Of a DNA stretch of 64,000 bases, positions 13,301-63,477 are shown one piece after another. Both the position numbers and the translations under genes were made by a program. The DNA lies in NCBI GenBank assembly GCA_031425495.1, contig JANPJL010000128.1, forward strand, positions 4,184 to 68,183. Reading direction: 5' to 3'. Source of the stretch: Acidobacteriota bacterium. GTDB taxonomy: Bacteria > Acidobacteriota > Blastocatellia > Pyrinomonadales > Pyrinomonadaceae. The notes under the pieces were generated by a model, which had not been told where the DNA came from, did not search any database, and saw only the letters and a program-made list of their open reading frames with translations. Numbering within the stretch: the first letter of the stretch is position 1; every line of letters begins with the position of its first letter.

Positions 13301-16300
13301 GTATATCGATCTCTTCATCGATCAACGGATTTGTGTTTATCTGTACGCCCGATGGTTCATTCTCCTGCGGGACGCTCTGGAAGAAATGGGAATTCAGATC
13401 GTCACCAACCTGCGGTCCGAATGGTGCGGAAGAGCAGTTGCTGTATCCGCTGGTTGCGGAGATCTGCAGAACGCCGTTCACGCTGCCGTCGCCTATGCCG
13501 TTTGCCGAACCGGGATTCAGACCCGCGCCGTTGCCAACGTATTGTTCGACGCCCGGGCTGCTAGTTGCCGCCATCCCTTCAATACCAAAATCGTTCGTGG
13601 TCGCGACGGTACCTTGCTTACGCAACCCGATACCGGCGGTGCTGCTGCTTCCGGACGTTGTGTTAGCTCGTAGGTCAAGACAAACGGCGTCGTCCGAGCC
13701 GGCCGCGGTATTCCCCGCATCTACCCGAATACCCGGGCGGAATCCTGACAAAGGTGCAGAGACCGAATTGTTTCGGATCCCAAGTTTCGCGATCGCACCC
13801 GTACCGTTTCCACGACCGACGAGGAGAATGCCGTTACCGTCTGTTTGGCTAATAGTGTTATTGGTGGCCGTGAGAGTTAGATCGGGAGTTTCGCAACGTC
13901 CCGCTGCGCATCCGATCACGACACCGTTTCCACCACCGATACCGTTTGCGGCGAGCCCCGCAACCTGATGATTGGCGACGATAGTATTGTTATCGACGAC
14001 CGCGGTCATATCCGAAAACCCGTTATTGCCGATACCGATGACCGTCCCGGTGAGATTTGTGAGCGGTCCGGATGCGAGGCAGCCTCCGCCGAATCTTCCG
14101 TTACAGGATATGTTCGCGTTTCCGCGAGAGCGCTGTCCGGAGTTACCGCCGCCGATCACAAAAAGGATGGCGCTCGTGTTCATTCGGTTTGCGGCACTCT
14201 GTCCCTGGATGGTGTTGCTGACGATGTTAATAATGTTGGTGGGATTACCGGGAGTTCCGGCTTCACCGCGTGGACCGGTCGAGTTTGTGTTGCCGTAATT
14301 AACCTGAATGCCGCCGCCGCCGGGAAAGTTCGTGATCGTGTTGTTGTTGATCGTCGCCTTCGTGAGGTTCGCTGCAGTGGTCGTATTGCCTATCCCGACT
14401 AATTTTATTCCGTCTCCGAGAGATGTCGCCGCCGATGTCGTGCTGGTGAAAGTGTTGCCGGTAATCACGGCGTCGCTGATCGTTCCGGCATCATTTTCAA
14501 GATAAATTCCACTATCACGAGCGTTCGTCAGCGTGCTTCCGGTTACCGTCAGCGTGCCGTTGATATTATTTCCTGACAGGCTACCAGTACCGTTGAACGC
14601 GATGTTGGATTCCGTAACGGCATCGCCCGAATTATTTATTGTTCCGTTTGTGAAGCTGAAGTTGTTGACGGATAGAACGCCATTGATACCGCTCCCGGCC
14701 GTGGTCTGAATATTCAGCTGGTCAAGGAATATATTCTGGACATTCGATAGCGAGATTCCGTCGCCGGTCGTGTTCTGTATCGTGCCGCCCGAGCTGTTAT
14801 TTGTACTCCCAGAATCGCCGACGATTCGGAATCCGCCCGGGCTCCCGGACGAAGTAGCGTTCGCTAATATGATCCCGCTCGCCGCACCTGTTGCCGACAC
14901 GCTGGTCCACTGCATATTCAGCGGAGTCATGACCACCGCACTTGTTCCAACGACCTGTACAGCGGTTGCAGTGCCGGTGCTGGGAATGGTCCCGCTTGTG
15001 GTCGTTATCGCACCGACGGACTGGTCCGTTGCGAAAAACGCTCGGATATTCGCATCGGGCGAGATGTCGAGATCAAGGAAGCTTACGGATCCGGTATTGT
15101 CGTCCAGAAAGACGCCGATCGCACCGCACTGCGTGGCGGTTACGTTTTGGAAGGTGACGGCTGTCGTCGAGTCCTGAATGTTTATGCAATTGACGGCTGG
15201 ATTGGTGAAGGTCGCGGTGCCGTTGACCGTTGTCAGACCGCCGCCCACAGCATGAACGAATCCAGTTCCGCTTCCGTTTGTAGTCGAGAGAGTTCCGAAC
15301 GATCGCGTTCCGGCAGAGTTGTTCTGCAGTGAAACGCCATCGGTACCGCCCGTGATCGCGGTGTTGCCAAAGCTTATGTTCCCGGTACTCGTGCCGACGA
15401 GGATGCCCTGGGTCGTCGCGCCGATCGTAGTCGAGGTTCCGAAGTTGGCAGCGACGGCTGAACTGGAGATAGAAATCCCCTGCGTGCCCGCACCCGAAAT
15501 CGACGTGGTGGTAGACACTGTCAGAGTGCCGCCGATTGTCGACAAGTTGATGCCGGGTCCGCCCGGAGCGCTTGTCGCCACTAGGCTGTCGAAGGTCGCG
15601 GTGATCGTGCCGCTTGCTAGGTCCAAGAGGCGACCCGTTCCCGAAAGATCCATCTCAGAGATCGCGAGCGTTCCGACGCTTGCGCCGGCGATGTCGATTC
15701 CGGTCGTGTTGCCGATATTAAATCCACGCAACGTATTTCCCGAGGCTGCGTTCACACCGTTCGTCGAAGCAGCGGTCGTTGTGATCGCTGGGCGTGAGCC
15801 GCCCGTAGCCGGTAGGGCATCGCTCCCCGTCGGGGGAGTTAAACCAGTGATCGTGGATAGCGATGCTGTCGCACCCTGCCCGATCAATCGCTGACCCGCG
15901 AGCAACGTAACGCCGCCGGTGTAGCTGCCACTAAATAGAAAAATATTATCGCTCGTTCCATCCGCCGCGACCGGATCAAAACAGCCGGCACCGACCAGAC
16001 AGTTGAAAGGCGAACTCAAGCGCCCGTCACCACCGCCAGCCGCGCTCGCGTTGACGAACCAGATCATCCCACTCACATTGAACGTAACGGTTCCGGTACC
16101 GGTGGCTCCACCTGTATCGGTTACCGTATATGTAAAGGTATCCGTACCCTCGAAACCCGGTGCCGGGTTATAGACAAAGCTGCCGTTGGCGCTCATCGTG
16201 ACGTTTCCGCCGTTGACGCTCGTCGCACCGGCACTTGCGGTCAGACCTGCGTTGGTCCCGGTGTTCGGATCGACGTCGTTCGCAAGCACGCCGCTTCCGA

Positions 16301-52883: not shown

Positions 52884-53122
52884 TGCTTTGAAAAATTAGG
52901 CCAAGGGAATGTTAGCAGAACCGGCCGTCGATTCCGAGCATAAAAACGGACGAGCCACCGGGAGGAGCACTTGGGTCCGTACCTCGAATCTGGCAGAATA
53001 TCGCTATCGCATTTTTACTGTCAGATCTTCTTTTACGGCTTGATGGGACCGCAAGATCTTCAAAAGGGAACGTGGGGGCTTGTTGGGCTGGAACGCCTGA
53101 ACGCTCTCGGGTAGTAAAAGAA

Positions 53123-53398
53123 ATGGTTGTTGCCCGAAAGCTCCTCATACGCGGCCTTGTGCAAGGCGTCGGCTACCGTTACTTCGCTCAGCGTGCGGCT
53201 GCCCGACATCAGGTGCACGGGTACGTGAAGAATCTCGACGACGGCCGGGTCGAAGCGTTCGTACAGGGCGATGAGGGCCAGGTCGAAGCCTTCAAACACG
53301 ATTTGACGGCAGGCCCAACATATTCGAATGTAGAAGATGTGGAAGAGATCGTGCTCGACCCGAGCCGTAGGTTCTCGACGTTCCGTATTGAGCGTTGA
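53123..53398 (+). CDS. acyP: acylphosphatase
   Basis: RGLVQGVGYRYF......GYVKNL.DGRVE...QG. Confidence 0.85.
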   Translation: MVVARKLLIRGLVQGVGYRYFAQRAAARHQVHGYVKNLDDGRVEAFVQGDEGQVEAFKHDLTAGPTYSNVEDVEEIVLDPSRRFSTFRIER

Positions 53399-53427
53399 TC
53401 TCGACCGACATATCGACAAGCTAATAG

Positions 53428-53949
53428 ATGGAAAACTTAAGAAAACTTATTCGCGAAGTGCCCGATTTTCCGAAGCCGGGCATTAACTTTTACGACATAA
53501 CGACGCTCCTCAAGGACCCGACGGGTCTCGAAGAAACGGTGGATGCTTTGACTGAGCAGTGTCGAGGCATGGATATCGATACCGTAATCGGCGTCGAATC
53601 ACGCGGCTTTATTTTTGCGACGCCGCTCGCGTATCAACTGGGCGCCGGGTTTGTTCCCGTGCGTAAACCGAAAAAGCTGCCGGCAGAAAAAGTATCGGTT
53701 TCGTATGATCTCGAATACGGACAGGACACTCTCGAAATGCACAAGGACGCCATCGGCGAAGGCCAGCGCGTTCTGATCGTGGACGATCTGCTCGCAACCG
53801 GCGGCACGGCTAAAGCGGTCGTCGATCTCGTCGAAGGTCTCGGCGGAAAGGTCGAGGGTCTGCTGTTCGTCGTTGAGTTGAACTTTCTCAACGGCCGGCA
53901 GAAGTTCGACGGTTACAATCTTAAATCGTTAATGAGATACGACTCTTGA
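53428..53949 (+). CDS. apt: adenine phosphoribosyltransferase
   Basis: DFPKPGI.F.DIT.LL.....ESRGF.F......RK..KLP......[14 protein letters not shown]. Confidence 0.93.
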
Positions 53950-53951
53950 AT

Positions 53952-54050
53952 GGTTGATCGTGGATCGTTGTTCGTTGCTCGCGTGGATGAGTACGTAGAT
54001 TCGGGAAGGAACGACGACGATCAACGAACCACGATCAACGATCAACGAAT
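53952..54050. repeat. hairpin of 7-nt GTTGATC units
   Basis: The left arm GGTTGATCGTGGATCGTTGTTCGTTG starts 2 nt after the apt stop. The right arm is CGACGATCAACGAACCACGATCAACGATCAACGAA. Confidence 0.85.
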
Positions 54051-54053
54051 TGA

Positions 54054-54086
54054 CAATCCAAAATCCAAAATCCAAAATCCAAAATG
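54054..54086. repeat. 7-nt array CAAAATC x4.5 immediately upstream of tRNA-Arg
   Basis: CAATCCAAAATCCAAAATCCAAAATCCAAAATG is almost the same string as the one preceding tRNA-Asp at 31551-31583. Confidence 0.9.
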
Positions 54087-54093
54087 CCCTCCC

Positions 54094-54170
54094 GCTCCCG
54101 TAGCTCAGCTGGATAGAGCGTCCGCCTCCTAAGTGGAAGGTCGCGTGTTCGAATCACGCCGGGAGCACCA
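54094..54170 (+). tRNA. tRNA-Arg (anticodon CCU)
   Basis: Acceptor GCTCCCG/CGGGAGC. D arm GCTCAGCTGGATAGAGC. Anticodon arm TCCGC-CTCCTAA-GTGGA. T arm GCGTG-TTCGAAT-CACGC. Encoded CCA. Confidence 0.92.
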
Positions 54171-54234
54171 TTTAAATCAACAAGTTACAGGTCATCTTGA
54201 ACTCATGAATTTTGAATCCCACCCGGATTCCCAC

Positions 54235-54342
54235 CTACGACGGGCCCTTAAGCGAAATTCGAAAAGAGATCTCGAGGTGGAAGTCCTCGGTCGGTGCCTT
54301 GCCGGAATAGACGTTTTCCCAATGCGTTTTGCTGGCTATCAT
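54235..54342 (-). pseudogene. 5' fragment of a SAM-dependent methyltransferase gene (truncated)
   Basis: MIASKTHWENVYSGKAPTE matches the common HWE.VY..K N-terminus of class I methyltransferases. The reading frame then diverges and stops after 35 codons, next to the tRNA. Confidence 0.45.
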
Positions 54343-54491
54343 TTCGCTTTTCCGTCCTCTTCGTCACTGCGTCGAGACTCGACGTCACAGGCACCGCGCA
54401 GTCACGTGGGCACCCCGAGCTTCGGCAAAATTACCAGCTGCAACAGCAGCCAGACGACAATGATTCCTCCGATCCAGAGTAATTGTTCCAC
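54339..54491 (-). other. 50-codon small membrane ORF interrupted by one in-frame TGA (selenoprotein candidate or pseudogene)
   Basis: GTG lies 1 nt after the rhodanese stop. The ORF reads VEQLLWIGGIIVVWLLLQLVILPKLGVPT-TGA-LRGACDVESRRSDEEDGKAK. Its final TGA overlaps the next ATG (ATGA). A hairpin CGTCGA-GTC-TCGACG lies 17-31 nt after the internal TGA. Confidence 0.35.
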
Positions 54492-54492
54492 G

Positions 54493-54915
54493 CTATTTCT
54501 CCATCGGAAAACCGGCGCCTTCCCACGCTGACGTTCCGCCGCTGATATTGTAAATTTTCTCGAAACCGGCTTTCTGGAGAATTTCCGAACCTTTTTGCGA
54601 ACGCCTTCCCGTTTGGCAGATCACATAGACTGGTTTGCCTTTATCCAGTTTTACCAGTTCCTGTTGAAGGAGGTCGAGAGGGAAGTTTGCTGCATTCACG
54701 GCGTGTCCGCCCGCATATTCGCCGATTGTGCGAACGTCAATAAACTGAACGTCGTTTGCCTCAACGGCCGGTCTCGCTTCGGCAACATTTATTTGTTCTA
54801 TTCCGGCCGGCGTACCACTTTGCAACGAATCCGCCGCGTTCTGCGTTGACGTCGCCTGACAAGCCGAAAACCAAAAAACTGAAAGTATCGATATAAAAAA
54901 TATTGTCATTTTCAT
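54493..54915 (-). CDS. rhodanese-domain lipoprotein (sulfurtransferase)
   Basis: Lipobox FSAC. FIDVRT..EY..GH...A.N... and the active-site loop VICQTGRRS. Confidence 0.85.
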   Translation of the reverse strand: MKMTIFFISILSVFWFSACQATSTQNAADSLQSGTPAGIEQINVAEARPAVEANDVQFIDVRTIGEYAGGHAVNAANFPLDLLQQELVKLDKGKPVYVICQTGRRSQKGSEILQKAGFEKIYNISGGTSAWEGAGFPMEK

Positions 54916-54938
54916 ATAACTCTAACTGCGTATCGGAT

Positions 54939-56354
54939 CTAATTATTTTGATCAGCGGTACATTCCGATTTCGTTAACTCCGAATTGGAGCAAGTCGCAC
55001 CGGATGCTTCCGTTTCCAAACCCGCGTCCATCCACGCTTCGGTACCGCCGGTTACGTTATAGATTTCACGGAAACCGGCATTCTCGAGAATGCTGGTTGC
55101 GAGGCTAGAGCGATAACCGCTCTGACAAAGAACGTAAGTGGGCTTTTCGGGAGCAAGCTTTCCGACCTCTTTTGCCAAAATATGGAGCGGTAGATTCATC
55201 GCATTTCTGGCATGTCCGGACGCATGTTCGGCGGGCCGACGCACATCGACGAACTGCACATCTCCATCCTTAGTAGCATCATTCGCCTGATCAACCGGGA
55301 CCTGGTGGACCTTCTTCGTTTCGCCCCTATAATCATCGATCAAAATATATCCCTTGACGGTTTCGATACCGACGCGGGCAAGACGCATAAAGGCCTCGTC
55401 CACTTTTTCCTGATCTTCGGCGATAATTGCGACCGGTGTTCCAATTGCAATCAACGTTCCGGCCCACGGGGCAAACTGTCCCTGAAGGCCGATGTTGATT
55501 GAGTTTGGGATGTGACCTGCTCCGAATTCCGGACCTGAACGTGTGTCGAGCACAACGCCATTAAAATTTCCAATTTCCTCCGATGTCATTGCCACTGGTC
55601 TCGGCAGATCTTCGAGGGGGGCGGCCCCTCGCATATTCTCAGCTGAGCTTTCCTCAAAATATGCCGGAACTTCGAGTTGATCCTCCGCAACGATCTTTAT
55701 AAAGTCTTCTTTCGACATTGGCTGTAAAGCGTAATTGGTCTGACGCTGCTCTCCGAGAGTTGACCATGTTTCCTTTGACAGCGATTTTCCACAAAGTGAT
55801 CCCGCGCCGTGAGCCGGATAGACCTCCGTGTCATCGGGAAGAGGCAAGATCTTTTTGCGAAGCGAGTCATAAAGCATCCCTCCCATTTCTTCGGCCGTAA
55901 AACCTTTCGAGCCGATAAGGTCAGGTCTGCCTACATCCCCGATAAAAAGCGCGTCGCCGGTAAACATTTTTACAGGTGCGGCGTCTTCTGTATTCTCGGC
56001 GAGGACGGTAATTCCTTCCGGCGTGTGTCCCGGCGTTTCCATGAATTTGAGATTGATCTTGCCGACAGCAAATTCATCGCCATCTCTGACTTGGTGCGTC
56101 GGAAACTGGGTATCCGCTTTGTGACCATAAACGATTTCTGCACCGGTTTTCTTGGCAAGCTCAATGTGCCCGCTGACAAAGTCTGCGTGGGAGTGGGTCT
56201 CGATAATGTATTTTATTTTCTGGTTGTTCCCTGCCGCTTCGTCCAGGTACTGCTGAATATCGCGCTGCGGATCGATAACGGCCGCTTCCCCTTCTGAGCC
56301 AATGTAATACGACGCATGTGAAAGACAGCCTAAATAAAATTGCTTGAATTGCAT
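54939..56354 (-). CDS. MBL-fold persulfide dioxygenase fused to two rhodanese domains (Blh/CstB-like)
   Basis: The ATG at 56354 gives MQFKQFYLGCLSHASYYIGS...ETHSHADFVSGH. There are two rhodanese modules, the second with the active-site loop VLCQSGYRS. Confidence 0.85.
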   Translation of the reverse strand: MQFKQFYLGCLSHASYYIGSEGEAAVIDPQRDIQQYLDEAAGNNQKIKYIIETHSHADFVSGHIELAKKTGAEIVYGHKADTQFPTHQVRDGDEFAVGKINLKFMETPGHTPEGITVLAENTEDAAPVKMFTGDALFIGDVGRPDLIGSKGFTAEEMGGMLYDSLRKKILPLPDDTEVYPAHGAGSLCGKSLSKETWSTLGEQRQTNYALQPMSKEDFIKIVAEDQLEVPAYFEESSAENMRGAAPLEDLPRPVAMTSEEIGNFNGVVLDTRSGPEFGAGHIPNSINIGLQGQFAPWAGTLIAIGTPVAIIAEDQEKVDEAFMRLARVGIETVKGYILIDDYRGETKKVHQVPVDQANDATKDGDVQFVDVRRPAEHASGHARNAMNLPLHILAKEVGKLAPEKPTYVLCQSGYRSSLATSILENAGFREIYNVTGGTEAWMDAGLETEASGATCSNSELTKSECTADQNN

Positions 56355-56358
56355 AAAT

Positions 56359-57132
56359 TTATCCTCCAAATAAGACCGAATAATTCTTCGCAAAGAGAAA
56401 GACAGCGACTCCTAAAACGAACACGGCAAAACCTGTTTGAAGTTTTTCGGGAGCTACACGGTGTGAAATAAGTGTCCCGAAGATCGTTCCCGTTACCGCC
56501 AAAACTGTCACCAGCGCCGTTAGATTCCAGTCAAAATGGTTTTGGCTGGCGTGTCCGACGATACCGGCGACGCAGTTTACAAAGATCACAAAGAGCGATG
56601 TGCCGATTGCATCTTTCATCCCTGACCCGCCAAACATCACAAGCGCGGGCACTATCAAGAAACCGCCGCCAACGCCTAAAAATCCGGTCAGAATACCGAT
56701 TCCCAATCCTGCCATCAGTGCTTTCCAGACGATTAGTGCCTTTGTGTCTGTTTGGTCTCTTTCGTCGCTTGCCTTGGTGCGAAGCATCAAAGATCCAACC
56801 GTTAACATGAGCACTGCAAACGCCATCATCAACGCGGCCGGAGATAAAAGAAGAGTCAAGGGTGAGCCTAGCAGCGCTCCAATGATGCCCGCTACCCCAA
56901 ATATCAAACCCGTTCTCAACTGCACGGCCCCGCGTCGGTAATGCAAAAAGGACCCGACCAGACTGGTCGCCCCAACAACGGCCAGTGACATGCCGACCGC
57001 CTCGTGAGCTTCGACGCCGAGTACGTATACCAAGACGGGAACCGTAATGATCGAGCCGCCGCCGCCGATCAGCCCCAGCGAGAGACCGATCAGCGCGCTC
57101 AATACCAAACCCAAAATCAAAAAGATATTCAC
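56359..57132 (-). CDS. TauE/SafE family sulfite/anion exporter
   Basis: Seven to eight TM helices and duplicated GIGGG / GVGGGF motifs. Confidence 0.85.
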   Translation of the reverse strand: MNIFLILGLVLSALIGLSLGLIGGGGSIITVPVLVYVLGVEAHEAVGMSLAVVGATSLVGSFLHYRRGAVQLRTGLIFGVAGIIGALLGSPLTLLLSPAALMMAFAVLMLTVGSLMLRTKASDERDQTDTKALIVWKALMAGLGIGILTGFLGVGGGFLIVPALVMFGGSGMKDAIGTSLFVIFVNCVAGIVGHASQNHFDWNLTALVTVLAVTGTIFGTLISHRVAPEKLQTGFAVFVLGVAVFLFAKNYSVLFGG

Positions 57133-57139
57133 GATGAGG

Positions 57140-57706
57140 TTAGGTTATTTGCGTGGCGGTTCCGCATACCGCGCCGTTATTCCTGTTCCACGGCATTTTC
57201 GCCAATAGCATAGCCATAGTGCAGGTATCGGTCGCGGCCGCAAATACCAAACCTGCGCCGACAAACGTCGACAGTGCCACAAAATACGGATGGATCAGCC
57301 ACGATAAACCCACGCCGAGAACCACAAGCGAACCCGCCGCAAATCGCACTTGTCTCTCTAAAGACCAAACAGCTTTAGCGTCTATTTCAAATTCGAATCC
57401 GGCAGCTTTCCACGCCTCAAAACCGCCCCTCACGTTCCGCACATCCGAAAACCCAATCGAAAGCAATTTCCTCTGAGCATCCGAACCACGTTTCCCGCTG
57501 CGGCAGATCAAATACGTCGTCTTATCGCGATCAATTTCCGTATAACGCTTGTCTATGTCGCCGAGCGGAATAAGTCTTGCCCCATTTACACGTCCACCCG
57601 CAAACTCCGGGTACTCTCGGACGTCGATTAGGTTTACTGCCCCGGTCTCCACATGATGTTTCAGTTCGATGACGTCGCATTCATGCATCTTCAATTTTTC
57701 AGCCAT
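57140..57706 (-). CDS. rhodanese domain fused to a two-TM YgaP/DUF2892-like membrane module
   Basis: AGGAG RBS before the ATG at 57706. LIDVREYPEFAGG...YLICRSGKRG, then two hydrophobic helices. Confidence 0.8.
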   Translation of the reverse strand: MAEKLKMHECDVIELKHHVETGAVNLIDVREYPEFAGGRVNGARLIPLGDIDKRYTEIDRDKTTYLICRSGKRGSDAQRKLLSIGFSDVRNVRGGFEAWKAAGFEFEIDAKAVWSLERQVRFAAGSLVVLGVGLSWLIHPYFVALSTFVGAGLVFAAATDTCTMAMLLAKMPWNRNNGAVCGTATQIT

Positions 57707-57760
57707 AAGTTTCTCCTGTATTGAGTGTTGCGCTAGAATCAAACACTACCGTAACGTAAA

Positions 57761-57786
57761 TATCACTATACAGTAATATAGTGATA
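57761..57786. promoter_or_regulatory. candidate operator of the ArsR/BigR-like repressor
   Basis: Perfect 10-bp inverted repeat TATCACTATA-N6-TATAGTGATA in the 102-bp divergent spacer between the rhodanese operon and the regulator gene. Confidence 0.6.
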
Positions 57787-57808
57787 GAGCAATGCCGAAA
57801 AGTAAAAG

Positions 57809-58144
57809 ATGAAAGAGAAAGTAGAATTAAGTGACGAGGCGTTAGAAATGATTGCCGGCAGATTTCGACAGATGGCCGATCCGGTGCGGCTGAAAATTCT
57901 CTACACGCTCGGCGATGGTGAAATGAATGTAACCGACCTGGTTAAGGCAACCGGTGCCGGACAAGCCAATGTCTCCAAACATCTTGGGACCTTGCTCAAC
58001 GCAGAAATTGTTGCGCGCCGAAAAGATGGCCTGAACGCAATTTATCGCGTTTCGGACGAAACGATTTTTAAATTATGCGAAGTCGTTTGCTCTAGTCTCA
58101 AAACTCAACTCAAGACTCGCCACGACGTATTACTCGGACTCTAA
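57809..58144 (+). CDS. ArsR/SmtB-family transcriptional regulator (BigR-like)
   Basis: F..MADP.RLKILY.L..GE..V.DL......Q.NVSKHL..L....IV.RRK.G....Y winged-helix signature. C-terminal LCEVVCS cysteines. Confidence 0.85.
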   Translation: MKEKVELSDEALEMIAGRFRQMADPVRLKILYTLGDGEMNVTDLVKATGAGQANVSKHLGTLLNAEIVARRKDGLNAIYRVSDETIFKLCEVVCSSLKTQLKTRHDVLLGL

Positions 58145-58217
58145 AGGATCCTAATACCAAACATTGGCGGGAAAGTGCGCTGAACTCGAACGGGTGAAAT
58201 GCGGTTTGACGAGAGGC

Positions 58218-58266
58218 CGTCCGCGTTCTTAGTGGAAGGTCGCGTGTTCAAGTCACCCCGGGAGCT
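58218..58266 (+). pseudogene. partial copy of the tRNA-Arg 3' half (anticodon arm to acceptor end)
   Basis: 43 of 49 positions are identical to 54118-54166 by hand alignment, including GTGGAAGGTCGCGTGTTC and CCGGGAGC. Same strand as the intact tRNA. Confidence 0.75.
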
Positions 58267-58458
58267 AAATCTTAAATTCACGACACATCGGAGCGGTGAC
58301 TTTTCTGCAAGAACGATCCAGGGATGCTTACGTGGGGCCGTATCGGAATTGGGTGGCTATGAGCCGATCTTGGTCTCTACGGTGCTATCATAATATTACT
58401 ACGTGCCGACATGGCTTTGGCTACGGAATGCCTCAACGACCGGGCAAGAATACTGGAT

Positions 58459-59520
58459 ATGCTGATATCAACTGAACCAATCGGAAGTATTCCGCGACCG
58501 CTTGCATTGATCGACGCAGTAGCGGAGCATGCCGGCGATGACGCGGTGTTGGAACCGCTCTATGACGAGGCGATACGCGACACGATCGAGCGGTTCGAGG
58601 CGACTGGCTCGCCGGTGGTTACGGACGGCGAACAGCGCAAATATCATAACTTTTGGACCTATAGTGTTCATGGTTTGCCGAACACCGCACCGGATGGCTT
58701 CAAGATACCGTTCGAGGCGGGCCATACGCGACGCATGCTAAGGCTTACCGGCGGCCCTTTCCGGTATCAACGTCGAGCGGACATCTATCTCGATAAAGCG
58801 TTGCGTTACGCCAAGGTGCCGGTTAAGCAAGCGATCATTTCACCCTCGGCACTTAGCTTGATGTACCCTCTGGACGAAATTCCAGGATACTCGCGAGAGG
58901 AGTTCATCCACGATCTGCTGAATGAACACGAGACCGAGATCCGAAACTGCCTGCAAAAAGGAGCGTTCAAGGTTCAGGTCGACTTCACTGAAGGGCGGCT
59001 CGCCGTCAAGCTTGACCCGAGCGGTGAACTGCTCCGCCGGTTCATTGAAATGAATAATATGGCGCTGTCCCGCTTCTCGGCCGAAGATCGACAGCGGATC
59101 GGAGTGCATACTTGTCCCGGTGGTGACCGTGATTCGACTCACAGTGCCGATGTGGATTATGCCGAGCTGCTGCCCAGCCTTTTCGAGTTGAAGGCCGGTA
59201 ATTTTTACGTTGCCCTCGCAGGCGAATCGGATCGGGTCCGCGTACTGAAGATCATCCGCGAACATATGAAGCCGGATCAGCGCATTTTCGTCGGCGTTGT
59301 CGCTCCGATCGATCCGCGGATCGAGACGCCCGAGGAAGTCAGGGACCGCACGCTTGAAGCGGCGGAGCATATCCCGATCGAACAACTCGGCACGACGGAC
59401 GATTGCGGATTTGCACCTTTCTGCGACGATACCTCCACCAGTCGTGATACGGCCTTTGCAAAGATCCAGGCCCGCGTTGAAGGTACCGCACTCGCTTCCA
59501 AAATTCTGGGAGGTCAATGA
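58459..59520 (+). CDS. cobalamin-independent methionine synthase (MetE C-terminal domain-like) family protein
   Basis: EPIGSIPRP....., GVHTCPGGD, ..TDDCGF motifs resemble the Zn/homocysteine site. The start may be 58411 or 58459. Confidence 0.65.
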   Translation: MLISTEPIGSIPRPLALIDAVAEHAGDDAVLEPLYDEAIRDTIERFEATGSPVVTDGEQRKYHNFWTYSVHGLPNTAPDGFKIPFEAGHTRRMLRLTGGPFRYQRRADIYLDKALRYAKVPVKQAIISPSALSLMYPLDEIPGYSREEFIHDLLNEHETEIRNCLQKGAFKVQVDFTEGRLAVKLDPSGELLRRFIEMNNMALSRFSAEDRQRIGVHTCPGGDRDSTHSADVDYAELLPSLFELKAGNFYVALAGESDRVRVLKIIREHMKPDQRIFVGVVAPIDPRIETPEEVRDRTLEAAEHIPIEQLGTTDDCGFAPFCDDTSTSRDTAFAKIQARVEGTALASKILGGQ

Positions 59521-61550
59521 TGTCGCCCGACGACGAAGAAAAACTTTTGAGATCGGTCGCCATGCAGAACGCCAAGAGCATTCTCCTGGCGCGGCAGCGT
59601 GCTGAAGAAGAGCTGGTCGGTGCGAAAGAAGCCCTAGAGCTGAAAACGCAGCAGCTCGCTCACTCGCTTGCGATGATGCGTGCGACGCTTGAATCCACCA
59701 CCGACGGAATTCTGGTTACCGACAGGGCCGGCAACGTTACCGGCTTCAACGAAAAATTTGTACAGATGTGGGGCGTGTCCCTCGATCGAGAGGACCTCAA
59801 GCAGCACCGGCTCATCTTAAATGAGACCGGCCAGTATTTCGATGAGCCAAGTTACTTCCTTGAGCGGATCCAGTCTATTTATGACACGTCTCCGCCGGAG
59901 AGTTACGACCTGTTGGAGCTCTCCGATGGAAGGGTGATCGAACGATTCTCGAAGATCCAGTTCGTCGACGGACAAAACGCGGGCCGAGTCTGGAGTTTCC
60001 AGGACATAACCCAGCGGCGACAGGCCGAGCGACAACTACAGGAAAGCGAGAAGGAATTCCGTCAGTTGGCCGACGCGATGCCGCAGATCGTGTGGACGGC
60101 CAAACCCGACGGTACGGTCGATTATTACAACCACCGTTGGTTTGAGTATGTTCGCCCCGACAATCAACCCGCTGAGGACGGCGATTGGGATCGATTCGTT
60201 CACGCCGATGACCGGGCCCCGGTCCAACGGCGATGGGCCGACGCGCTTGATTCAGGGGAGCCTTATAAAGTTGAATGCCGGATCGTCGGGGCGGATGGAA
60301 CTTATCGCTGGTTTCTGGGACGGGCGTTGCCGGTGGCGGATGACCGGGGAAATATCGTCAGATGGTTCGGCACCTGGACGGATATTCACGAAGAGAAAGA
60401 AACGGCGGACGAACTGCGTGACGTAGCGGCCAGACTATCCGAGGCCGACCGCCGGAAGGATGAGTTTATTGCGATGCTGGCCCACGAGCTTCGAAATCCT
60501 CTCGCGCCGATCCGGAACGCGCTCGAGATAATGCGCGCAACCGATGACATGGGAACCGGTCTCCGTTCGGCGTCCGAAATGATGGAACGTCAGGTACGGC
60601 AATTAGTACGCTTGGTCGACGACCTGCTCGATGTCAGTCGAATCAGTCGAGGAAAGATCAATTTGCGCCGAGATGTGATCGAACTGGGTTCGGTCATATC
60701 GGACGCTACCGATGCCGCGCGGGAATCGTGCGAAAGCGGCGGCGTTGAATTGTCGGTGAAGCCCGCGGCTATACCGATCTTATTGAATGGTGACGCGGCA
60801 CGGCTCACTCAGGCGATCGGAAATTTGCTTAACAATAGCTGCAAATTCACCGACAAAGGTGGACGCATTGAGCTGAGCGTCGAGCGCGAGAGTGACGCGG
60901 CAGTGATCCGCGTTCGCGACACCGGTATCGGCATGTCGCCTGATCAGATACCCTATATTTTCGACATGTTCGTCCAGGCGGACACATCGCTCGAGCGCAC
61001 CGGGAGCGGGTTAGGGATCGGACTAAAACTCGTCAAGAACCTTGTGGAAATGCATGGGGGGATAGTCGAGGCCTCGAGTGCCGGGCTTGGTAAGGGAAGT
61101 GAGTTCGTAGTCCGCTTACCGGCGATAAATGACTTCGAGGAATTGCCCCGTTCGGCAGAGGGGATCCCGGCATCGAAGGCTTCGGTCCTCGGCCGACGAA
61201 TTCTGGTGGTTGACGATAATCTTGATTCTGCAGAGTCTATGTCGTTACTGCTTGCAATATCCGGTCACGACGTACGGACCGTTCATGACGGGCTCGCGGC
61301 GGTCGAGACTGCCGCGTCCTTTCGTCCGGAGATCGTATTGCTCGATATCGGCTTACCGAAATTGAACGGCTACGAAGCGGCTAGAAGAATCAGGAGCGAG
61401 CATTGGGGCAAGAGGATGTATCTAATGGCCCTTACCGGTTGGGGTCAGGACAAGGACCGAGAGCGGTCCAAAGAGGCGGGGTTCGATTGCCATCTGGTAA
61501 AACCGATCGATCCGGTCGAGCTGATGAAGCGATTGGCGGACGTAGAATAG
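59517..61550 (+). CDS. hybrid sensor histidine kinase / response regulator with two PAS domains
   Basis: PAS (TTDGILVTD; ...QIVWTAKPDGTVDYYN.RW), HisKA (FIAMLAHELRNPL), HATPase (DTGIGM...GSGLGIGL), and receiver (ILVVDDN...LDIGLP..NG). The ATGA overlap links it to the preceding gene. Confidence 0.88.
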   Translation: MMSPDDEEKLLRSVAMQNAKSILLARQRAEEELVGAKEALELKTQQLAHSLAMMRATLESTTDGILVTDRAGNVTGFNEKFVQMWGVSLDREDLKQHRLILNETGQYFDEPSYFLERIQSIYDTSPPESYDLLELSDGRVIERFSKIQFVDGQNAGRVWSFQDITQRRQAERQLQESEKEFRQLADAMPQIVWTAKPDGTVDYYNHRWFEYVRPDNQPAEDGDWDRFVHADDRAPVQRRWADALDSGEPYKVECRIVGADGTYRWFLGRALPVADDRGNIVRWFGTWTDIHEEKETADELRDVAARLSEADRRKDEFIAMLAHELRNPLAPIRNALEIMRATDDMGTGLRSASEMMERQVRQLVRLVDDLLDVSRISRGKINLRRDVIELGSVISDATDAARESCESGGVELSVKPAAIPILLNGDAARLTQAIGNLLNNSCKFTDKGGRIELSVERESDAAVIRVRDTGIGMSPDQIPYIFDMFVQADTSLERTGSGLGIGLKLVKNLVEMHGGIVEASSAGLGKGSEFVVRLPAINDFEELPRSAEGIPASKASVLGRRILVVDDNLDSAESMSLLLAISGHDVRTVHDGLAAVETAASFRPEIVLLDIGLPKLNGYEAARRIRSEHWGKRMYLMALTGWGQDKDRERSKEAGFDCHLVKPIDPVELMKRLADVE

Positions 61551-61737
61551 AGCAGTCGTGGCATTAGAACCGCGGCTGAGTTGTCGCACCTGTAAAAAAT
61601 TGCTGATTCTTTGGAATCACGCGCCGAATGAACCTTTCTATTAAGTGAACGGAAAACAACGGTGATCAGCACAGTGGCAGACATTTTCATATGTCTTGAT
61701 AGCCGGCGAACTCTATTCACAATCTCTTATACTCGCG

Positions 61738-61769
61738 AAAAACCGCATTTCAACTGAATGCGGTTTTTC
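61738..61769 (+). terminator. intrinsic terminator hairpin
   Basis: AAAAA-CCGCATT-TCAACTG-AATGCGG-TTTTT. Confidence 0.6.
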
Positions 61770-61845
61770 TATTTTCCGGGTGCCCGCACTTTCCCATCCT
61801 CAAACCGGTCTTCAAATTTCCCGGCGAATGTGGCAAGTTAAAACC

Positions 61846-63477
61846 ATGCGAAAGATCATAACCGCGGAAGAAATGCGCGAGATCGATCGGCTCACGAGTG
61901 AGCGTTACGGAATTCCTCCACTGTTGTTGATGGAGAACGCCTCGCATGCCGCAAGCCGGGCGATCGCTGAAAAGCTCGGAGGGTCGGTCGAAGGGAAGTC
62001 GGTGTTGATCCTTTGCGGCAAAGGCAACAACGGCGGCGACGGTGCTGCGTTGGGCCGGATACTGTGGCTGCAGGGGGCGGATGTCGAGGTTTGCTTGTTC
62101 GGTTTGGCGGACGACACAAAAGACGAAGCTCGCGCAAATTTCGAGATCCTGAAGAAAATTTCGGACGATGAAGGGTTCGAGTTGACGCAGTCTGATCTGG
62201 CGTTCGAGGAGATCACGAGCCTCGAGGAATGGCTCGATTATGACAGCGTCAATTTCCACTGTGACGACCCCGACGTGATCGTTGACGCCCTTGTCGGGAC
62301 CGGACTGACCAGGCCGCTCGATGGCGTCTTCGAACAAGTCGCGGCATTCATCGATGCATTCTGCGACGAGGGTTGCGGGTCCGATACGATTGTAGTGTCG
62401 CTCGATGTTCCGTCCGGTTTAAATGCGGACTCGGCGGAACGATTGGGTGCAAACGCACGAGCCCATCTGACCGTAACTTTCACTGCACCAAAACTTGCTA
62501 ACGTAATGCCGCCGGCCTCGAATTATGGCGGCGATCTGGTCGTAGCGAACATTGGTTCACCCTGTAATCTCGTAAGCGATGCAGTGTCGAAAACATTCGT
62601 CGCCGAAAGGGAAGACGCGGCCCGCTGGTTAGCTCAGACCGAGTTTTCAAACGATTCCTACAAGAGCAAGCGTGGGCATGCGTTGCTGATCGCCGGGTCG
62701 GCGGACTATAGCGGTGCCGCCGTCTTATGCGGCAACGCGGCGATCCGGTCCGGTGCCGGACTTGTGACCATAGCTACGTCTCGCTCGTCACGCGATTCGA
62801 TCGCTGTACGCGTATCACCCGAGGTGATCGTCCGTGGCATTGCCGAGACGGAGGCGGGAGCTATATCGGAGAAGGCATTCGAGGAGATCCGAGAATTGTC
62901 GGCGAACGTCGATGTCATCGCCATCGGGAGTGGCCTCAGCTCGAATGATGCACCCACTCGATCGCTCGTCCGCCGCGTCATCGAAGAGCGAACAACTCCG
63001 ATCATCATCGACGCAGACGGCCTTAACTCGCTCGCACCATTCGACCTCTCAGGCTCGGTCGAACTTCCCTTGATCTTAACTCCGCACGAGGGTGAATTTA
63101 AGAAGCTGTCGGCAAAAACTGAATTGACCGATCGTATCGCCGCCGCCCGCGCCTTTGCCGAAACGCATTCGGTGGTCCTCGTGCTAAAAGGTGAGCGGGT
63201 CGTGATCGCAGAACCCGGTGGCCGCGTCGTGATCAACCCGACCGGAAATTCGGGACTAGGAAAAGCCGGAAACGGGGATACGCTGACCGGAATTCTCGCC
63301 GGCTTTGTCGCCCAGGCGGCGCTCATGGGTATAGATATTTTCGACACGGTCGTCGCCGGCGTCTATATCGCGGGACTCGCCGGCGATATCGCATCGGACC
63401 GATTTGGAAAGAGAGTTATGACGGCGTCGGATACCGCCGAGGCGCTGGCCGAATGTTTTCGCGGGTTTGATGGATAG
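61846..63477 (+). CDS. nnr: bifunctional NAD(P)H-hydrate epimerase / ADP-dependent dehydratase
   Basis: The ATG at 61846 gives MRKIITAEEMREIDR...CGKGNNGGDG (YjeF_N). The C-terminal carbohydrate-kinase part has KGERVVIA...GNSGLGKAGNGDTLTG. Confidence 0.9.
   Translation: MRKIITAEEMREIDRLTSERYGIPPLLLMENASHAASRAIAEKLGGSVEGKSVLILCGKGNNGGDGAALGRILWLQGADVEVCLFGLADDTKDEARANFEILKKISDDEGFELTQSDLAFEEITSLEEWLDYDSVNFHCDDPDVIVDALVGTGLTRPLDGVFEQVAAFIDAFCDEGCGSDTIVVSLDVPSGLNADSAERLGANARAHLTVTFTAPKLANVMPPASNYGGDLVVANIGSPCNLVSDAVSKTFVAEREDAARWLAQTEFSNDSYKSKRGHALLIAGSADYSGAAVLCGNAAIRSGAGLVTIATSRSSRDSIAVRVSPEVIVRGIAETEAGAISEKAFEEIRELSANVDVIAIGSGLSSNDAPTRSLVRRVIEERTTPIIIDADGLNSLAPFDLSGSVELPLILTPHEGEFKKLSAKTELTDRIAAARAFAETHSVVLVLKGERVVIAEPGGRVVINPTGNSGLGKAGNGDTLTGILAGFVAQAALMGIDIFDTVVAGVYIAGLAGDIASDRFGKRVMTASDTAEALAECFRGFDG

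Follow-up and report, generated by a model that had tools for sequence, protein, structure and literature searches.

Genomic islands and integrative elements enter the 3' ends of tRNA genes by means of tyrosine integrases, such as those of the P4 type and of the pathogenicity-island type. Integrative elements that target tRNA genes have been reviewed previously (PMC7545054). Here, an island located at a tRNA-Arg(CCU) gene and carrying genes for persulfide detoxification was analyzed in a member of the Pyrinomonadaceae (Acidobacteriota, Blastocatellia). The island lies in a window of 64,000 nucleotides (assembly GCA_031425495.1, contig JANPJL010000128.1, positions 4,184 to 68,183 of the forward strand), and all positions below are those of this window. 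The source is a metagenome-assembled genome (MAG), designated G000, of 3.67 Mb in 316 contigs with a contamination of 0.35%. Its lineage, Acidobacteriota subdivision 4, is an uncultured soil lineage known here from MAGs only. The comparison set for the genus included 190 species genomes, of which 24 were sampled first; further labels (G001 and so on, L181) denote these relatives or their loci.

The gene content of the island resembles that of two described operons. The cst operon of Staphylococcus aureus is composed of CstR, TauE, CstA, CstB, and SQR, with CstB combining a persulfide dioxygenase and rhodanese modules in one protein (PMC12934615). The BigR operon of Xylella and Agrobacterium encodes the BigR repressor, the Blh sulfurtransferase/dioxygenase, and a permease (PMC5823870).

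The G000 island is genuine, but it is an ordinary, degraded example of the tRNA-targeted kind. Like other islands of this type, it is bracketed by an intact tRNA gene and, on the far side, by a direct repeat of the 3' segment of that tRNA, is absent from the site in relatives, and is atypical in composition, and the same tRNA is reused by integrase-bearing elements in the genomes G067 and G078. Unlike them, it contains no integrase or mobility gene, and its repeat has decayed and is internal to a larger variable region. Moreover, instead of typical accessory cargo it carries a piece of a chromosomal operon conserved in the lineage, and the intact elements of the genus have their integrase at the repeat end, not beside the tRNA. 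Most probably, an element carrying an operon fragment was integrated at the 3' part of tRNA-Arg and lost its integrase afterwards, as judged from the sequence comparisons described below.

The intact tRNA-Arg(CCU) gene (54094-54170, forward strand), recognized by both ARAGORN and Rfam, is the integration target and marks the attL side. A degenerate direct repeat of tRNA positions ~22/26-73 was found by sequence match at 58218-58266 of the same strand, where it forms an attR-type scar. The repeat is identical to the tRNA at 43 of 49 positions and shares with it an exact core of 19 nt, which occurs 2 times in the window versus 0 expected from 100 shuffles. Both features stand as given in the original prediction, which was made from the DNA sequence of the window. 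Rfam assigned no tRNA score to the copy at 58218-58266 and, at a permissive threshold, found the tRNA-Arg alone across positions 53000-62500. A dispersed tRNA-like repeat was considered as the source of the fragment and rejected: within the 3.67-Mb genome, the 49-nt fragment occurs only here, the remaining matches being other tRNAs, and no tRNA-like fragment lies beside the operon in other genomes. Since six mismatches have accumulated in the repeat, the island appears to be fixed in place. Weak similarity between the two copies runs for ~12 nt beyond the tRNA end. The G000 tRNA-Arg encodes its CCA, unlike the relative L181, which has an empty site. The 3' end of the tRNA is GGGAGCACCA (...GCACCA) in G000, whereas L181 and the displaced repeat of G109 have GGGAGCAC|GTTT (...GCAC|GTTT). 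This difference fits a tRNA 3' end supplied by the copy carried on the element. Immediately 5' of the tRNA-Arg gene, a run of heptamers (AATCCAA AATCCAA ...) occupies positions 54054-54086 of the forward strand. A like run 5' of the G109 tRNA (L153, about 15485-15600) was deduced solely from an open reading frame (ORF) across it whose translation is a repetitive IPNPxSQ.

The ancestral state of the site was reconstructed from relatives. In 17 of them, the backbone of the locus is thiE-thiD-OMP-acyP-apt-tRNA-Arg(CCU)-nnr, where OMP stands for an outer-membrane protein gene and the interval between the tRNA and nnr is variable, measuring 101 bp in G005, 135 bp in G002, and up to several kb elsewhere. 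L181 represents a close relative (identity of 92% for apt, 83% for OMP, and 73% for nnr) whose tRNA core is identical to that of G000, including the unusual GCGTG T-stem. Its tRNA and nnr are separated by 150 nt, which corresponds to an empty site. Empty sites, with 100-430 bp from the tRNA (or apt) to nnr, were found in G005, G002, L181, G151, and G091, and in these sites a conserved nnr-upstream block directly follows the tRNA. In an alignment with the empty sites of G002, G005, and L181 and with the attR of G109, the ancestral flank downstream of the tRNA and upstream of nnr resumes in G000 at 61581-61695 (forward strand). The inserted DNA therefore extends from 54171 to about 61580-61603, ~7.4 kb in total, and is composed of segment A (54171-58217), the 49-nt repeat, and segment B (58267 to about 61580).

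Segment B contains a metE-like gene (58411-59520) and a gene for a PAS hybrid histidine kinase (59517-61550), both on the forward strand. Because these genes are missing from the empty sites, the repeat is internal to the 7.4-kb variable region, an arrangement compatible with a tandem or two-step array. The original outline of an island of ~4 kb bounded by the tRNA and the repeat was thus correct as to the brackets, which are real, but not as to the extent of the insert. The anticipated empty sites do occur in relatives (G005, G002, and L181), but there the tRNA is joined to the nnr upstream region and not, as predicted, to the metE-like gene. No repeat was detected at the distal end of segment B when its outer edge was aligned. 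A candidate outer repeat at 61555-61580, proposed from a MAFFT alignment to the T-arm of the tRNA, was rejected as being at chance level, since its local-alignment score of 6 was reached in 4537 of 5000 shuffles, while the true repeat scores 37.

The nnr-upstream block itself is ~90 nt long (61604-61695, forward strand; also in L073, L074, L078, and L181) and has the consensus TTTGGAAT..CGAATGAAC.TTTCTATTA..TGAACGGAA..CAGCACAGTGGCA.ACATTT. It is kept across the genus despite ~50% divergence of the nnr protein and has no match in Rfam. The block may serve as a promoter or a leader, or it may encode a small RNA.

Integration at the same tRNA was found to be recurrent in the genus. A genus-wide pattern scan yielded matches in 170 genomes, and a second CCU-type 3' half was present in at least 13 of them (G013, G067, G077, G078, G080, G091, G109, G110, G112, G116, G125, G143, and G151); this count is a lower bound, and strain mixtures are possible where both copies sit on separate contigs. 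In G067, apt and the tRNA are followed by a phage-like element of 11.5 kb with a MuF-like protein, a tyrosine integrase (381 aa), the repeat, and nnr. In G078, the tRNA is followed by three ORFs, an integrase (417 aa), and the repeat, 4.6 kb in total. Both integrases contain PF00589 and a SAM-like domain, and both are encoded at the distal end of the element, adjoining the repeat. In the close relative G109 (identity of 93% for apt and 73% for nnr, with the same tRNA core), an island of 50 kb lies between the tRNA and the repeat, which is followed by nnr. In G013, a perfect repeat of 45 nt (tRNA positions 33-77) is located 4.0 kb downstream, with mobile-element-like cargo in between, and in G021 the repeat is identical at 30 of 32 positions. 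The extents of the repeats in relatives (from tRNA positions 26-33 to 75-81) match that in G000, and in G067, G109, and G112 the ancestral flank directly follows the repeat, as expected of attR. The integrase-bearing cases surfaced only in the genus-wide pattern scan; among the matches listed for the first 40 relatives, no integrase was found on the contigs with apt and the tRNA.

These comparisons support recurrent use of the stretch from tRNA-Arg(CCU) to nnr as an integration site for tyrosine-integrase elements in the genus. A scar of integration at the tRNA 3' end, as originally proposed for G000, is in turn supported by the empty sites and by the intact elements and same-extent repeats at the same tRNA. 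The related islands that were expected to bear a tyrosine integrase are those of G067 and G078, although the enzyme is encoded there at the repeat end rather than next to the tRNA. No integrase remnant was detected in G000 by tblastn of positions 53900-61800 with three integrases of the genus, in agreement with the earlier statement that the integrase is gone. Since the integrase genes of G067 and G078 are proximal to the repeat, the loss in G000 probably occurred at the end with the ArsR gene and the repeat. Hence, of the earlier view of an old, domesticated island with a deleted left end, the age and the loss of the integrase hold, but the truncated gene on the tRNA side is a separate breakpoint.

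The 4-kb insert of G013 (L069, G013:C6) contains no integrase. It encodes a 361-aa protein and a product of an 812-aa ORF, presumably, as read by eye, a truncated ParB/N6-methylase-like protein. For this insert there are two readings, a remnant of very recent age and an element mobilized in trans.

The genes of segment A correspond to a persulfide cluster found throughout the genus in the order F6-F1-F7-ArsR / rhodanese-YgaP-TauE-dioxygenase-rhodanese lipoprotein-small ORF-F11-F10-F5-F9, where F1, F5-F7, and F9-F11 are labels for gene families of this cluster. The dioxygenase gene was present in all 24 genus genomes first sampled. In G000, the ArsR/SmtB-family regulator (57809-58144, forward strand) is divergent from the other genes, which are on the reverse strand: a rhodanese fused to a YgaP-like transmembrane domain (57140-57742), a TauE/SafE-family anion exporter (56359-57132), a CstB-like persulfide dioxygenase with a metallo-β-lactamase (MBL) fold and two rhodanese domains (54939-56393), a rhodanese lipoprotein (54493-54915), a membrane mini-ORF of 50 codons (54339-54491), and a stub of an S-adenosylmethionine (SAM)-dependent methyltransferase (54235-54342). 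A spacer of 64 nt (54171-54234), which is homologous neither to F11 nor to the ancestral flank, separates this stub from the tRNA. The stub is 35 codons long, and its translation matches the N-terminus of F11, a 206-aa protein seen intact after the operon in G011, G014, and G022. Identity of G000 and G011 at the DNA level is 85% across the small ORF and the start of F11 and stops at about 54287, so that the stub marks the breakpoint of the captured fragment. Both the gene set between the repeats and the truncation of the methyltransferase after 35 codons had been read correctly in the original prediction, the former being confirmed by Pfam. Rather than a foreign-looking set of genes, the cargo is a fragment, cut inside F11, of a chromosomal cluster that is conserved in the genus.

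The ancestral position of this cluster in G000 lacks the operon. On contig C115, F1-F7 and F5-F9 are parted by 15 kb of unrelated genes, and neither the remainder of F11 nor a reciprocal junction was found there or elsewhere in the G000 genome. The genes for TauE, ArsR, and rhodanese-YgaP are single-copy in G000. A second dioxygenase gene is located on contig C178 in a thioredoxin/OsmC context (as in G001, G002, and G006), without the partner genes. Because the C178 copy has no partners and C115 has no operon, the island holds the sole complete operon of G000. The two dioxygenases are not recent duplicates, an option that was rejected because they are only 66-67% identical and fall into separate clades. 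The C178 copy groups with those of G006 and G023 (support 100/99), and the island copy groups weakly with that of G003 (93/87), near G011 and G020. The 15-kb stretch on C115 (C115:3400-18400) encodes, among others, large secreted proteins and a 1199-aa winged-helix regulator and represents a second event of replacement in G000.

Within the genus, identity to the island genes reaches 74-76% for the dioxygenases of G112, G088, G091, G092, and G149 and 75-81% for TauE. These closest operon copies have the same gene order and an intact F11, and are located in contexts of 46-49% GC. A near-identical donor was not found: identities were at most 76% in the genus scan and at most 75-78% over long matches in the metagenome scan, and the look-up of exact proteins was empty. 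The operon occupies several different contexts across the genus. In G007 (L090, G007:C64, 7300-12050), two copies of the operon are present, and the extra one ends with ArsR followed by a 155-aa C-terminal fragment of a tyrosine integrase. It adjoins genes for a multicopper oxidase, a DUF302 protein, and a P-type ATPase. As this extra copy lies beside an integrase fragment, mobilization of the module is not unique to G000.

The two segments of the insert differ in base composition. The GC content of segment A is 50.2%, as compared with 53.8 +/- 1.6% in 4-kb windows of the genome (2.5th percentile), and GC content at third codon positions (GC3) is 0.49-0.58 in its genes versus 0.60-0.65 in the flanking genes. 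The impression by eye that the island is AT-rich therefore holds for segment A. Segment B is host-like (90th percentile), the DNA past the repeat (58267-61695) having 55.6% GC. The dioxygenase of the island has a GC3 of 0.515 versus the host-like 0.635 of the C178 copy, and in relatives the GC content of the dioxygenase gene is at or above the local one. The low GC and GC3 of the island copy, set against the host-like C178 copy, favor acquisition from a lower-GC congener; the composition suggests such a source but does not prove it. A comparison of the species tree with the gene tree as a test of horizontal transfer was made on a genus that is deep and star-like at the available markers, with a weakly supported position of the island copy; the origin was therefore judged from composition.

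The following course of events can be proposed from these comparisons. An element would have recombined in G000 with the 3' part of the tRNA, from the anticodon arm to the acceptor end. The functional tRNA would have been rebuilt from the copy carried by the element, and the older copy pushed ~4 kb downstream. The surviving cargo would be a 4-kb persulfide-detoxification fragment, from ArsR through the first 35 codons of F11, probably of chromosomal origin in a congener with lower GC. The integrase, expected beside the repeat by comparison with G067 and G078, and the other mobile parts would have been deleted later. Segment B would be a separate and probably older insertion, possibly left over from an earlier member of a tandem array of elements. 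Because in relatives the ancestral flank directly follows the repeat, by the logic of attR segment B was probably located beside the tRNA before the element of segment A arrived. This order fits both the host-like GC content of segment B and the ~12-nt similarity past the tRNA end in the two copies.

Several observations weigh against this history. With no surviving integrase or mobility gene in G000, the cargo is linked to the repeat by position only. Genomes with the closest operons are also closer to G000 at nnr (55-65% versus 49-54% for most genomes); these genomes being closer relatives, gene similarity alone cannot separate transfer from vertical descent with relocation. Resolution of the gene tree is poor near the island copy, and neither the 190 genomes of the genus nor the metagenome collection yielded a donor above 78% identity. 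As segment B lacks its own repeat, the order of events can be given only as a probable one. Finally, in a MAG of 316 contigs, the continuity of the junctions depends on the assembly alone.

Some of the same observations would agree with an internal relocation, in which the ancestral operon of G000 was moved, or copied with later loss of the source copy, from its locus between F7 and F5 into the scar of an unrelated, deleted element, with no transfer between species. The loss of the operon from C115, the fair closeness at both nnr and apt of the genomes with the closest operon copies, and the lack of any donor-like copy above 78% identity are all compatible with such a move. It is nevertheless unlikely, because an operon native to G000 would not be expected to have GC and GC3 below those of the genome when the same genes of relatives are at or above their background and the other dioxygenase of G000 is host-like. 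In addition, neither the other half of F11 nor a reciprocal junction remains at C115 or elsewhere, and in G007 an additional copy of the operon is associated with an integrase fragment.

The history of an element with a captured operon fragment was also compared with a single composite event, where segments A and B arrived together, or segment B was inserted later at the junction of the repeat and the flank, so that no tandem array of two elements ever existed. The missing distal repeat of segment B would be explained in this way, and the metE-like gene is indeed patchy, being present in 4 of the 24 genomes of the genus, and its best match (66%) comes from another family. However, in G067, G109, and G112 the repeat directly precedes the ancestral flank, which places segment B at the site first. 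The unlike GC contents of the segments (50.2% versus 55.6%) and the weak similarity of the two copies for ~12 nt beyond the tRNA, as if the arms of related elements followed, also speak against a single event, and we consider it improbable. Least credible of all is an assembly artefact, in which segment A came from a co-occurring lower-GC congener and was stitched in at the conserved tRNA: the 316 contigs, the off-host GC content of segment A, which resembles that of low-GC congeners, and the nearly invariant tRNA 5' half would permit it, but two crossovers would be needed, the second one within a 49-nt repeat whose 19-nt exact core is too short for the usual k-mers, the other operon genes are found nowhere else in the bin, its contamination is as low as stated above, and the layout of tRNA, stub, operon, and repeat has no counterpart in the 190 genomes.

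The proteins encoded in segment A are consistent with detoxification of persulfides. In the dioxygenase, Lactamase_B and two Rhodanese domains were detected by Pfam, the motifs THSHADF and CQSGYRS are legible, the latter being the C-terminal active-site loop, and the full-length matches are 3TP9 (E 5e-75) and 3R2U (E 6e-65). The latter structure we take to be S. aureus CstB. The N-terminus of the rhodanese lipoprotein is signal/lipobox-like, its active-site loop reads CQTGRRS, and the active-site Cys loop is kept in all three rhodanese domains, as read from the sequence. The exporter matches PF01925 with 175.7 bits (cut-off 32.6) over residues 10-245 of 257.

The regulator had been described as BigR-like. 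It belongs to the ArsR/SmtB family, but an alignment with BigR (3PQJ) places Tyr at the position of the BigR α2 Cys, and the BigR model NF040642 of NCBIfam gave 44.5 bits against a cut-off of 155; the narrower assignment is thus not sustained. An LC(D/E)xVC motif in α5, LCEVVC in G000, was found in the G000 protein and in all 19 intact genus copies aligned. The motif is a plausible sensor of sulfane sulfur, and the ArsR proteins of these operons, which have no counterpart of the α2 Cys of BigR/SqrR, may use a different thiol-sensing arrangement. The G000 regulator has strongly diverged and is only 39-48% identical to the other genus copies. In the predicted circuit, the ArsR-type repressor would sense sulfane sulfur via the conserved CxxxC and derepress the operon, the rhodaneses would pass persulfide sulfur to the CstB-like enzyme, and this enzyme would oxidize it to sulfite or thiosulfate, with TauE exporting the product.

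The cluster shares with the S. aureus cst operon a full-length match to CstB, clustering of TauE and stand-alone sulfurtransferases, and a divergent repressor predicted here to sense thiols. It differs from cst in that the regulator is of the ArsR/SmtB family, versus the CsoR-family CstR, and in that neither SQR nor a multidomain sulfurtransferase of the TusA/CstA type is encoded. Instead, the G000 cluster contains the membrane rhodanese-YgaP, the lipoprotein rhodanese, and the small UGA-containing membrane ORF. In common with the BigR operon, it has an ArsR-family winged-helix repressor transcribed away from an operon that encodes a dioxygenase/sulfurtransferase and a TauE-like exporter, and the same logic of sulfide detoxification. 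In addition to the replaced α2 cysteine of the regulator, the two systems differ in the dioxygenase, which is of the CstB type (MBL-Rhd-Rhd) in G000 and not of the Blh type (DUF442-MBL); the bifunc_ST_SDO model gave a score of 63 versus a cut-off of 625.

The mini-ORF belongs to the conserved operon and contains an in-frame TGA at codon 30. This codon is present in all 14 copies (that of G000 and 13 copies from 12 relatives), and in these copies it is followed closely by a conserved (M/L)RG(A/S)C. A hairpin with a stem of 7 bp and the loop G(G)UC begins ~20 nt past the UGA; 75.8% of its cells are paired, versus 20-55% when the pairing is slid. Three of its pairs vary on both sides, and, depending on the measure, 13-115 of 500 shuffles equal the observed value. 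The G000 genome encodes the selenocysteine machinery, including tRNA-Sec (found by ARAGORN) and both SelB and SelA above their cut-offs. No Pfam or NCBIfam model matches the mini-ORF. On these grounds it is a candidate for a new family of small selenoproteins tied to the CstB-like operon, and is a more novel item than the island within which it lies. It is conceivable, albeit tentative, that the element transplanted a lineage-core operon between congeners into a genome lacking a native copy, and with it an undescribed family of membrane selenoproteins of 40-60 aa (T-U-x-R-G-x-C) that is a fixed partner of CstB-type detoxification in Pyrinomonadaceae.

The understanding of tRNA-targeted islands is not changed by this locus, and its sulfide-detoxification operon is of a known type. 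The accessory parts of the operon, namely the ArsR protein with CxxxC and the candidate mini-selenoprotein, are unusual and worth studying apart. The locus is a clean comparative example of one tRNA gene serving as a recurrent landing pad across an uncultured soil genus. At the same site, each stage of decay can be seen, from integrase-bearing elements through perfect repeats without an integrase and a worn repeat with domesticated cargo to the empty site. An island can thus carry, as its cargo, conserved chromosomal DNA of the lineage itself, which bears on island predictions and on the distinction of core and accessory genes in MAGs.

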